In this document: positions 19,019 to 37,935 of the stretch, in pieces | Numbering within the stretch: position 1 is the first letter of the stretch | Layout: every line of letters begins with the position of its first letter | Source of the DNA: Escherichia coli O157:H7 | Lineage (GTDB): Bacteria > Pseudomonadota > Gammaproteobacteria > Enterobacterales > Enterobacteriaceae | Direction: 5' to 3' (one strand) | Length of the DNA: 64,000 bases | Assembly (NCBI RefSeq): GCF_013167455.1 | Contig: NZ_CP038328.1 | Notes under the pieces: generated by a model | The model's input: only the letters and a program-made list of their open reading frames with translations | Database searches by the model: none | What the model was told of the DNA's origin: nothing | Position numbers and translations under genes: made by a program

Positions 19019-20059
19019 ATGAAAAAAGTTTTATTACAAAACCATCCTGGGAGCGAGAAGTATTCTTTTAATGGCTGGGAAATATTTAATAGTAATTTTG
19101 AACGGATGATTAAAGAAAATAAGACCATGCTGCTTTGTAAGTGGGGGTTTTATTTAACATGTGTTGTCGCTGTAATGTTTGTATTCGCAGCGATAACATC
19201 CAACGGTTTGAATGAAAGAGGCCTGATTACCGCGGGATGCTCTTTTCTTTATCTATTAATTATGATGGGGCTTATTGTTCGGGCCGGTTTTAAAGCAAAA
19301 AAAGAACAGCTGCATTATTATCAGGCTAAAGGTATTGAGCCGCTCAGTATCGAGAAATTACAGGCGCTACAATTGATCGCACCTTATCGATTCTATCATA
19401 AGCAATGGTCTGAAACGCTGGAGTTCTGGCCGCGAAAGCCTGAACCTGGCAAAGATACCTTCCAATATCATGTGCTTCCTTTTGACTCGATCGATATCAT
19501 AAGTAAAAGACGCGAGTCTTTAGAGGAACAATGGGGTATCGAAGATAGCGAAAGTTATTGTGCCTTAATGGAGCATTTTCTTTCTGGCGACCATGGAGCC
19601 AATACCTTTAAAGCAAACATGGAGGAAGCCCCAGAGCAGGTTATCGCCTTGTTGAATAAATTTGCTGTTTTTCCCTCAGACTATATCTCTGATTGCGCTA
19701 ATCATAGCTCCGGTAAATCCTCGGCGAAGCTAATATGGGCGGCGGAATTATCATGGATGATCTCGATATCAAGCACAGCTTTTCAAAACGGGACAATTGA
19801 AGAAGAACTGGCCTGGCATTATATAATGCTTGCTTCTCGAAAGGCGCACGAGTTGTTCGAAAGCGAAGAAGATTATCAAAAAAATAGTCTAATGGGATTT
19901 CTTTACTGGCATATCTGCTGCTATCGCAGAAAGTTAACGGATGCTGAACTTGAAGCTTGTTATCGTTACGACAAGCAGTTTTGGGAGCACTACAGTAAGA
20001 AATGCCGTTGGCCCATAAGAAATGTTCCCTGGGGAGCATCATCCGTTAAATACTCATAA
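19019..20059 (+). CDS. ynjI: inner-membrane protein of unknown function (DUF1266)
   Basis: 346 codons from the ATG at 19019 (MKKVLLQNHPGSEKY...); AT-richer than its neighbours; the ORF-track form starts at a TTG 63 bp upstream. Confidence 0.75.
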   Translation: MKKVLLQNHPGSEKYSFNGWEIFNSNFERMIKENKTMLLCKWGFYLTCVVAVMFVFAAITSNGLNERGLITAGCSFLYLLIMMGLIVRAGFKAKKEQLHYYQAKGIEPLSIEKLQALQLIAPYRFYHKQWSETLEFWPRKPEPGKDTFQYHVLPFDSIDIISKRRESLEEQWGIEDSESYCALMEHFLSGDHGANTFKANMEEAPEQVIALLNKFAVFPSDYISDCANHSSGKSSAKLIWAAELSWMISISSTAFQNGTIEEELAWHYIMLASRKAHELFESEEDYQKNSLMGFLYWHICCYRRKLTDAELEACYRYDKQFWEHYSKKCRWPIRNVPWGASSVKYS

Positions 20060-30655: not shown

Positions 30656-31462
30656 TTAGCGGCGGAAGGTCGCCCAGACGGGGGCGTGATCGGACGGTTT
30701 TTCCATGCTGCGGATTTCATAGTCGATGCCGGTTTCTACGCAACATTCTGCCAGCGGTTGGCTGGCGAGCAGCAGGTCGATGCGCAGACCACGGTTATCG
30801 TCAAAACCTTTTGAGCGGTAATCAAACCATGAGAAACGATCTGCTGTTTGCGGATTCGCATGGCGGAAGGTATCAACCAATCCCCAGCTCATCAGTCTCT
30901 CCATCCATTCGCGTTCCTCCGGAAGGAAAGAACATTTTCCGGTACGCAGCCAGCGCTTACGGTTCTCTTCGCCAATGCCAATATCCAGGTCGCCAGGACT
31001 GATATTCATATCGCCCATAATCAGCACCGGATTTTCACGCTTGAGTTCGGTTTCCAGGTAGTTTTGCAGATTCTGATAAAACTGCGCCTTTGCCGGGAAT
31101 TTTATCGGATGGTCGCGGCTTTCACCCTGCGGGAAGTAACCGTTGATCACGGTGACATTGCCCAGCGGCGAGGGGATTTCCGCCATAATAATCCGCCGCT
31201 GCGCCTCTTCTTCGTCACCGGGAAAGCCGCGACGCACGGCAATCGGCGTCTCTTTGGTCAGCAGCGCCACGCCATAATGGCCTTTCTGCCCGTGATAAAA
31301 CACGTTGTAGCCGAGCTTCGCCACCTCTTCGAGGGGAAACATATCGTCATGAACTTTTGTCTCCTGCAGGCCAATCACATCCGGTTGGTGCTTTTCGACG
31401 ATGGCTTCAAGCTGGTGGGGTCTGGCGCGCAGGCCATTGATATTAAAAGAGACAAATTTCAT
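30656..31462 (-). CDS. xthA: exodeoxyribonuclease III
   Basis: 268 codons from [21 protein letters not shown]. Confidence 0.9.
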
Positions 31463-31819
31463 AGTCGCTGCCATTTATTCAGATAAAGAGTGCGTGGATG
31501 GTAGCAGAATTTCGCTTTGCTTACCGCCTGTTGTTAAGTGATTTGATCGATGGTTGTTAATGATGTCAACGATGGCGCAAAAAATGCCCGCTTTTGGTGC
31601 GCGCTGCGTCAGAATGGCGCAGTAATTTCCAGTAAATTTCGTCAATGATCACAATTCCAGAATTATATTTTACTTCTGCATAACATTGCGTTTTTTATTC
31701 TTTTTATTCACCCACATCGCAAACGTATTCACTTAATATGCACTTTAAATGCATATGGTTTGGTTATAACTCCTTGATTTCCAGTTAGCCTCCGCCGTTT
31801 ATGCACTTTCATCACTGGC

Positions 31820-31835
31820 TGGCACGAACCCTGCA
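31820..31835 (+). promoter_or_regulatory. sigma54 (-24/-12) promoter element TGGCAC-N5-CTGCA upstream of astC
   Basis: TGGCACGAACCCTGCA read in the sequence about 75 bp upstream of the astC ATG; the ast operon is known to be NtrC/sigma54 controlled. Confidence 0.6.
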
Positions 31836-31871
31836 ATCTACATTTACAGCGAAAACATTACTTATTATTAA

Positions 31872-37935
<6,064 letters not shown>

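Follow-up and report, generated by a model that had tools for sequence, protein, structure and literature searches.

Besides astC of K-12 and of Salmonella, the closest known counterparts of the control region analysed here are glnHp2 and argT-hisJQMP; like the promoter of the astCADBE operon, these are weak promoters of the NtrC/sigma-54 class and depend on DNA bending by a protein placed between remote NtrC sites and the promoter. The bending protein is IHF at glnHp2 and is reported to be ArgR at astCp, described as a weak promoter that ArgR binds naturally (bioRxiv 10.1101/086108); argT is, like astC, a sigma-54 site of arginine metabolism (PMC4591121). Against these two systems, the ast region has an unusually long spacer between NtrC sites and promoter (~230–255 bp), and it apparently combines both ARG boxes and an IHF consensus with overlapping sigma-S and ArcA control.

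The sigma-54 promoter of astCADBE is already characterised, and its presence here is a textbook case and an ordinary finding. Kiupakis and Reitzer reportedly mapped where astC transcription starts, and footprinted NtrC and ArgR, in a 2002 paper that is cited by all the studies listed next. In Escherichia coli K-12, the sigma-54 ChIP-seq site OS17, assigned to astC, is the 17-mer CTGGCACGAACCCTGCA, with a tabulated distance of 62 from the predicted start to astC and the status “C”, i.e., experimentally confirmed in EcoCyc (PMC4591121). In gSELEX, in vitro binding to the astC/xthA spacer was seen with RpoN holoenzyme by itself, with NtrC and with the two combined, and astC is named among the experimentally confirmed RpoN promoters (Shimada et al. 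2021, PMC8743547). In nitrogen-starved cells astCADBE is an NtrC ChIP-seq target, and its control by NtrC is cited as direct binding plus expression evidence (Brown et al. 2014, PMC4066584). The published NtrC ChIP peak (1830021–1830101) covers the promoter and not the predicted upstream sites described below; since other NtrC targets in the same table also peak over their promoters, the ChIP peak does not locate the enhancer (PMC4066584). In Salmonella, ChIP-chip places sigma-54 at the orthologous TGGCACGAATGCTGCAAT, with NtrC as the assigned activator, and the Salmonella ast operon is induced by a constitutive enhancer-binding protein (PMC3844500). In the O157:H7 strain EDL933, astCADBE is listed as regulated by RpoS, RpoN, ArgR and NtrC (PMC2907692).

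Herein we compare with these systems the astC locus of an E. coli O157:H7 window, i.e., the whole stretch of 64,000 nucleotides that was analysed (Table 1). The window carries the same 17-mer as K-12 astCp2, the same 62-nt distance from start to astC and the same divergent xthA, and the 445-bp spacers are 99% identical. Relative to K-12 MG1655 there are six spacer substitutions (at 31516, 31735, 31810, 31852 and 31886–87). These leave the -24/-12 element and the NtrC-type sites untouched; one of them changes a W position of the ARG box, and two fall between repeats of the ArcA site. Salmonella Typhimurium astC (STM1303; Samuels et al. 2013) shares the gene, the position and the -24/-12 blocks (TGGCACGAA..CTGCAAT) and differs in the spacer bases (GAATGC against GAACCC).

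Table 1 Features of the xthA–astC control region, in window coordinates; centres are given relative to the predicted sigma-54 start.
Feature	Position	Strand	Basis and remarks
xthA (exonuclease III), divergent	30656..31462	-	NCBIfam model, RefSeq annotation
Possible third NtrC position, half-site only	31563..31579		Right half TGGCGCA; 22 bp from site 1; conjectural
NtrC-type site 1, TGCCCGCTTTTGGTGCG	31585..31601		10/14 consensus positions; centre ~-253; predicted
NtrC-type site 2, TGCGTCAGAATGGCGCA	31605..31621		11/14 consensus positions; centre ~-233; 20 bp from site 1; predicted
Conserved block AAATTTCG-N5-GATCACAATTCCAGAATTATATTT	31634..31671		-212 to -175, 38 bp; alignment
Second ARG-box candidate, TCTGCATAACATTGCGTT (other genera: CTGAATAATATTTCG type)	31675..31692		Centre -162.5; weaker
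Best ARG box (ArgR), ATTCACTTAATATGCACT	31727..31744		11.2 bits; centre -110.5; predicted
Palindrome TGCACTTTAAATGCAT	31739..31754		Inside inverted repeat I1, arms 31736–45 and 31747–56
Putative partner ARG box, 3 bp downstream	31748..31765		Left half alone conserved: TGCAT here, TGAAT in 53/59
IHF core consensus, AATCAAGGAGTTA matching WATCAANNNNTTR	31767..31779	-	Centre ~-73; predicted
Sigma-54 -24/-12 promoter element (astCp2), CTGGCACGAACCCTGCA	31819..31835	+	Direct reading, PWM, ChIP-seq identity, conservation
Sigma-S/sigma-70-type -10 with -13C (CTACATT)	31838..31844	+	Abuts -12 element; invariance
Predicted sigma-54 transcription start (A)	31846	+	19-bp rule of Bonocora et al.; 62-nt 5' UTR
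ArcA-P operator, four direct repeats, 11-bp spacing	31854..31896		+9 to +51; matches footprinted K-12 site
astC-astA-astD-astB-astE operon, arginine succinyltransferase pathway	31908..37935	+	ORFs, NCBIfam, RefSeq

The -24/-12 element upstream of astC

A sequence-only reading of the window had proposed a GG-N10-GC element at 31820–31835, and exactly that sequence, position and gap were found there. On the + strand the interval reads TGGCACGAACCCTGCA and lies 73 nt upstream of the ATG of astC (31908), with GG at 31821–22, GC at 31833–34 and a gap of exactly 10 nt, which is the spacing of sigma-54 promoters. A single base departs from the consensus TGGCAC-N5-TTGCW, namely C for T at 31831 (CTGCA vs TTGCA). 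The element is located in the 445-bp divergent spacer between xthA and astC and has the sense orientation, close to the gene it would regulate; the rule of Bonocora et al. (PMC4591121), which counts 19 bp downstream from the centre of the motif, predicts initiation at 31846, 62 nt from the astC ATG, and the A at this position is invariant in 59/59 orthologues. The downstream genes had been taken for those of the arginine succinyltransferase pathway, and this identification was borne out, as astC, astA, astD, astB and astE matched NCBIfam equivalog/subfamily models far above the curated cut-offs, and the RefSeq annotation of an identical strain gives the same five ast genes.

Several O157:H7 and related chromosomes match the 601 bases around the element with 100% identity; 5424 of the 5426 complete E. 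coli genomes contain this stretch, and 5347 of the 5426 have an identical 40-mer 31812–31851. Among the 5424 records, two that carry the xthA-astC region are labelled plasmid, and for these a misassembly or a plasmid-carried chromosomal segment is possible.

A loose pattern (TGGCACN5TTGCW, one mismatch allowed) run over the 64-kb window gave three matches against 3.65 expected; since a bare consensus match was therefore not significant, we used in its place a position weight matrix (PWM) built from ChIP-seq sites. The matrix was a leave-one-out PWM derived from the 41 other intergenic, sense-oriented E. coli sigma-54 ChIP-seq sites (Table 1 of Bonocora et al. 2015, PMC4591121). The astC element scored 18.07 bits, the top value among ~128,000 positions on both strands (runner-up 15.14 bits), outscoring 32 of the 41 training sites; in 30 shuffles of the window this score was never attained. 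The runner-up, CTGGCATATCTGCTGCT at 19906–19922 (15.1 bits), is in sense orientation near the 3' end of a PRK11380-family gene adjoining gdhA, and its motif is absent from the published high-stringency sigma-54 ChIP-seq list. A scan of the spacer for sigma-70 promoters and terminators found nothing relevant above chance. An Rfam scan of 31400–32000 returned a sub-threshold mgtC-leader match (21 bits vs a gathering score of 48, E = 0.09), which we treated as chance.

For the comparative analysis, astC loci were fetched with a degenerate coding-sequence pattern encoding ENFDEWM, 21 nt inside astC; because the anchor is in coding sequence, the retrieval was independent of the promoter sequence. 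We kept 58 genuine astC loci, in which 86–98 of the first 100 residues are identical where complete, and with the window these make 59 sequences from Escherichia, Salmonella, Citrobacter, Enterobacter, Leclercia, Lelliottia, Kosakonia, Phytobacter, Silvania, Pseudenterobacter and Huaxiibacter. The pattern CTGGCA[CT]G-N5-TGCA[AC]T is present in all 58 other loci, 72–74 nt from the ATG. In the alignment, 31815–31824 (which includes the -24 CTGGCA) and 31832–31835 (-12, TGCA) are invariant in 59/59 sequences, and the 5-nt spacer at 31827–31831 varies freely. Fixed -24/-12 blocks, a free spacer and a fixed position are the expected signature of a -24/-12 element. Together with the top PWM score and the K-12 site OS17, the conservation in 58/58 loci upholds the proposal that this is the RpoN promoter of the ast operon. 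A genuine sigma-54 promoter was thus recognisable from sequence alone by a first-stage reader.

Two of the retrieved lineages deserve separate mention. In the type strain of Escherichia albertii, NBRC 107761 (L004), the astC start position reads ATA, not ATG, and in the -24 element the base equivalent to 31826 is A in place of G; an altered start or a difference in sequencing may lie behind this. In the Kosakonia/Phytobacter loci (L024, L069 and L074), a different gene end and a hairpin terminator, not xthA, are found upstream of the NtrC-type sites; since the part of the ast control region that begins with the NtrC sites is kept in these loci, they delimit the functional unit.

Predicted sites on either side of the element

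The upstream enhancer-binding-protein sites that belong to a sigma-54 promoter are represented here by a predicted NtrC-type pair. Scanning with the consensus TGCACCAnnnTGGTGCA, as quoted in PMC8743547 (14 scored positions), identified sites 1 and 2 as the sole pair in 64 kb with at least 10/14 matches each and a spacing of 20–23 bp. The statistic is a modest one, as a pair of this kind turned up in 6 of 200 shuffles. Across genera, both sites keep their TGC and GC cores. A half-site further upstream may mark a third NtrC position, which in Enterobacter and relatives carries a perfect TGGTGCA in the alignment (GTGGTGCAATATTTGCACC matches). The link to nitrogen-limited induction that had been suggested for the ast genes agrees with published binding data, in which the operon is an NtrC target by ChIP-seq under nitrogen starvation (PMC4066584) and by gSELEX (PMC8743547).

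ArgR or enhancer sites had been anticipated within 31680–31790. The ArgR part of this expectation stood, as a conserved ARG box is found at 31727–31744, whereas the enhancer part did not, the NtrC-type sites being further upstream at 31585–31621; the range itself holds ARG-box and IHF-type sites. ARG boxes were scored with an empirical PWM of 12 boxes, the best pairs of six K-12 operators (argE/C, carA, argI, argG, argA and argR), and were compared with the 18-bp imperfect palindrome wnTGAATwwwwATTCAnw. The best box of the spacer conforms to this palindrome and ranks fifth in the window, with a score inside the range of bona fide K-12 boxes (10.0–21.7 bits). Over the 59 orthologues its median is 10.9 bits, with at least 8 bits in 48/59, and ATTCAC and ATGCA are invariant. 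The putative partner box at 31748–31765 is weak alone (median -0.7 bits over the orthologues), and the pair has a consensus pair score of 18 and a PWM pair rank of 3 in the window. Since the partner is weak by itself, the arrangement corresponds in part to a tandem 39-bp operator, in which the second box is 2–3 bp away. Alternative registers at 31716–33 and 31737–54 also score. The weaker candidate at 31675–31692 reaches 5.5 bits here, with an orthologue median of 6.5 and at least 8 bits in 23/59.

The register of the pair would also account for the palindrome within inverted repeat I1, whose letters suggest that it may consist of the ATGCA right half of box 31727–44 and the TGCAT left half of the next box, 12 bp downstream; the 3 bp between the two boxes have their midpoint at 31746, the symmetry centre of the palindrome. 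The text of the ArgR ChIP-exo paper makes no mention of ast. A tandem duplication (TTTTTATTC, two copies) occupies 31692–31709, where conservation beyond Escherichia is poor.

Directly after the -12 block, 31837–31844 (TCTACATT) is invariant, beyond what sigma-54 needs, and 31837–31849 reads TCTACATT(T/C)ACAG across genera. The operon depends on RpoS in K-12 (10.1101/082537) and, strongly, in EDL933 (PMC2907692), and judging from its letters and invariance the CTACATT hexamer may well be the -10 of the RpoS-dependent ast promoter. As this sigma-S-type -10 overlaps the sigma-54 promoter, the two holoenzymes may compete. CTGGCA was considered as a -35 of the sigma-S promoter and was rejected, as the spacer of ~14 nt is too short.

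Further downstream, 31854–31896 is the reverse complement of the K-12 astC ArcA-P site 1830018–1830060, which is given in the supplement of Park et al. (2013) alongside a 44-bp DNase I footprint in the text. Forty-one of the 43 bases are identical, the differences being at 31886–87 alone (GC for AT), between repeats. The site has the TGTTA-type direct repeats with 11-bp spacing and, for its K-12 counterpart, the footprint that define an ArcA operator. The overlapping sigma-S-type -10, the ArcA operator and the IHF consensus were all absent from the sequence-only reading.

Readings of the control region

We consider the element at 31820–31835 to be astCp2, the sigma-54 (RpoN), NtrC-activated promoter of E. 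coli astCADBE, with a probability of about 95%. The present analysis supplies the motif and its ranking, the pattern of conservation and where the sites lie; occupancy by sigma-54 and NtrC, as well as the “experimentally confirmed” status, is taken from literature on the identical K-12 sequence. On this reading, RNA polymerase–sigma-54 would be held as a closed complex on the GG/GC element (31819–31835), and under nitrogen limitation phosphorylated NtrC would occupy two or three phased sites ~230–255 bp upstream (31585–31621) and contact the polymerase by DNA looping, leading to an open complex and a start near 31846. The ~200 bp interval between enhancer and promoter would carry DNA bends, made by arginine–ArgR at the ARG boxes and probably by IHF at 31767–31779, and these bends would tune the loop. 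Stationary-phase expression would come from the sigma-S-type -10, and anaerobic repression would be exerted through the ArcA operator that follows it. What we infer is the layout of the loop, the parts played by ArgR and IHF, and which hexamer sigma-S would use. The result is a worked map of a multi-input control region that brings together NtrC, sigma-54, ArgR, sigma-S, ArcA and probably IHF.

Three other readings of the element were weighed against this one. If the GG-N10-GC were a chance occurrence without function, ast would be transcribed from sigma-S or sigma-70 promoters alone, which would be in keeping with the strong RpoS dependence of astCADBE in EDL933 (PMC2907692) and with loose consensus matches that are no commoner than in shuffled sequence (3 vs 3.65 expected). 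The PWM score, however, is the top of the window and was reached by no shuffle, the -24/-12 blocks are invariant around a variable spacer in 59 loci from about a dozen genera, and sigma-54 ChIP-seq, gSELEX and ChIP-chip place the factor at identical or orthologous sequence, so that a chance match is effectively refuted and carries next to no weight. A second possibility is that sigma-54 depends here mainly on an activator other than NtrC, in favour of which the NtrC-type sites are imperfect (10/14 and 11/14) and the strongly conserved block at 31634–31671 is without an assigned factor. It is nevertheless very improbable, because NtrC binds the spacer both in vitro (PMC8743547) and in vivo (PMC4066584), the operon is listed under NtrC control in Salmonella (PMC3844500) and EDL933 (PMC2907692), and the conserved TGC...GC cores are spaced like NtrC half-sites.

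The sigma-54 element could alternatively be chiefly repressive, a parked closed complex occluding the overlapping sigma-S/sigma-70 -10 (31838–44). The element and CTACATT do overlap physically, and sigma-54 is bound as a transcriptionally inactive holoenzyme in standard medium (Bonocora et al., PMC4591121), a source that also cites a precedent for occlusion by overlapping promoters (its reference 27); according to Shimada et al. (PMC8743547), some RpoN-recognised promoters gain activity without RpoN or NtrC. Set against this, published lists give the promoter as experimentally confirmed and activated by NtrC (PMC4591121, PMC8743547, PMC4066584), and conserved, phased NtrC sites would be purposeless in a purely occlusive role. 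We therefore regard a chiefly repressive element as very improbable, and retain activation of astCp2 by NtrC as the main function, to which occlusion of the sigma-S -10 could be added as a secondary effect.

Two comparative leads in the spacer

Beyond what is established for ast regulation, the comparison yields two minor, possibly new leads: the IHF consensus with its conservation, and the block at 31634–31671. The match to the IHF consensus is perfect and is found at the same place in 58/59 loci, with three matches in 64 kb on both strands. Its TAAC and TTGAT are invariant and its N positions vary, so that conservation is confined to the specified bases. The block is near-invariant over about a dozen genera, being conserved like the promoter, and it is kept in Kosakonia and Phytobacter. 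Two assignments were tried for it and gave a poor fit: as a CRP site, the left half matches 2/5 by eye, and as an ARG-box pair it scores at most 5.3 bits.

On the strength of alignment, the conserved IHF consensus (-73) and the 38-bp block might be two previously undescribed inputs to ast control, a suggestion that we offer tentatively and consider rather doubtful; either may be covered by earlier published footprints. An IHF input at -73 would make the enhancer–promoter loop one shaped jointly by ArgR and IHF, in which ArgR would not simply be standing in for IHF.

Two minor observations concern the minus strand of the spacer. Within the 31634–31671 block it carries a perfect TATAAT, from 31668 to 31663. 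Near xthA, a further conserved block (31485–31515, AGTGC..GGATGGTAGCAGAAT) contains CTACCAT on this strand, which is a possible sigma-S-type -10 for xthA.
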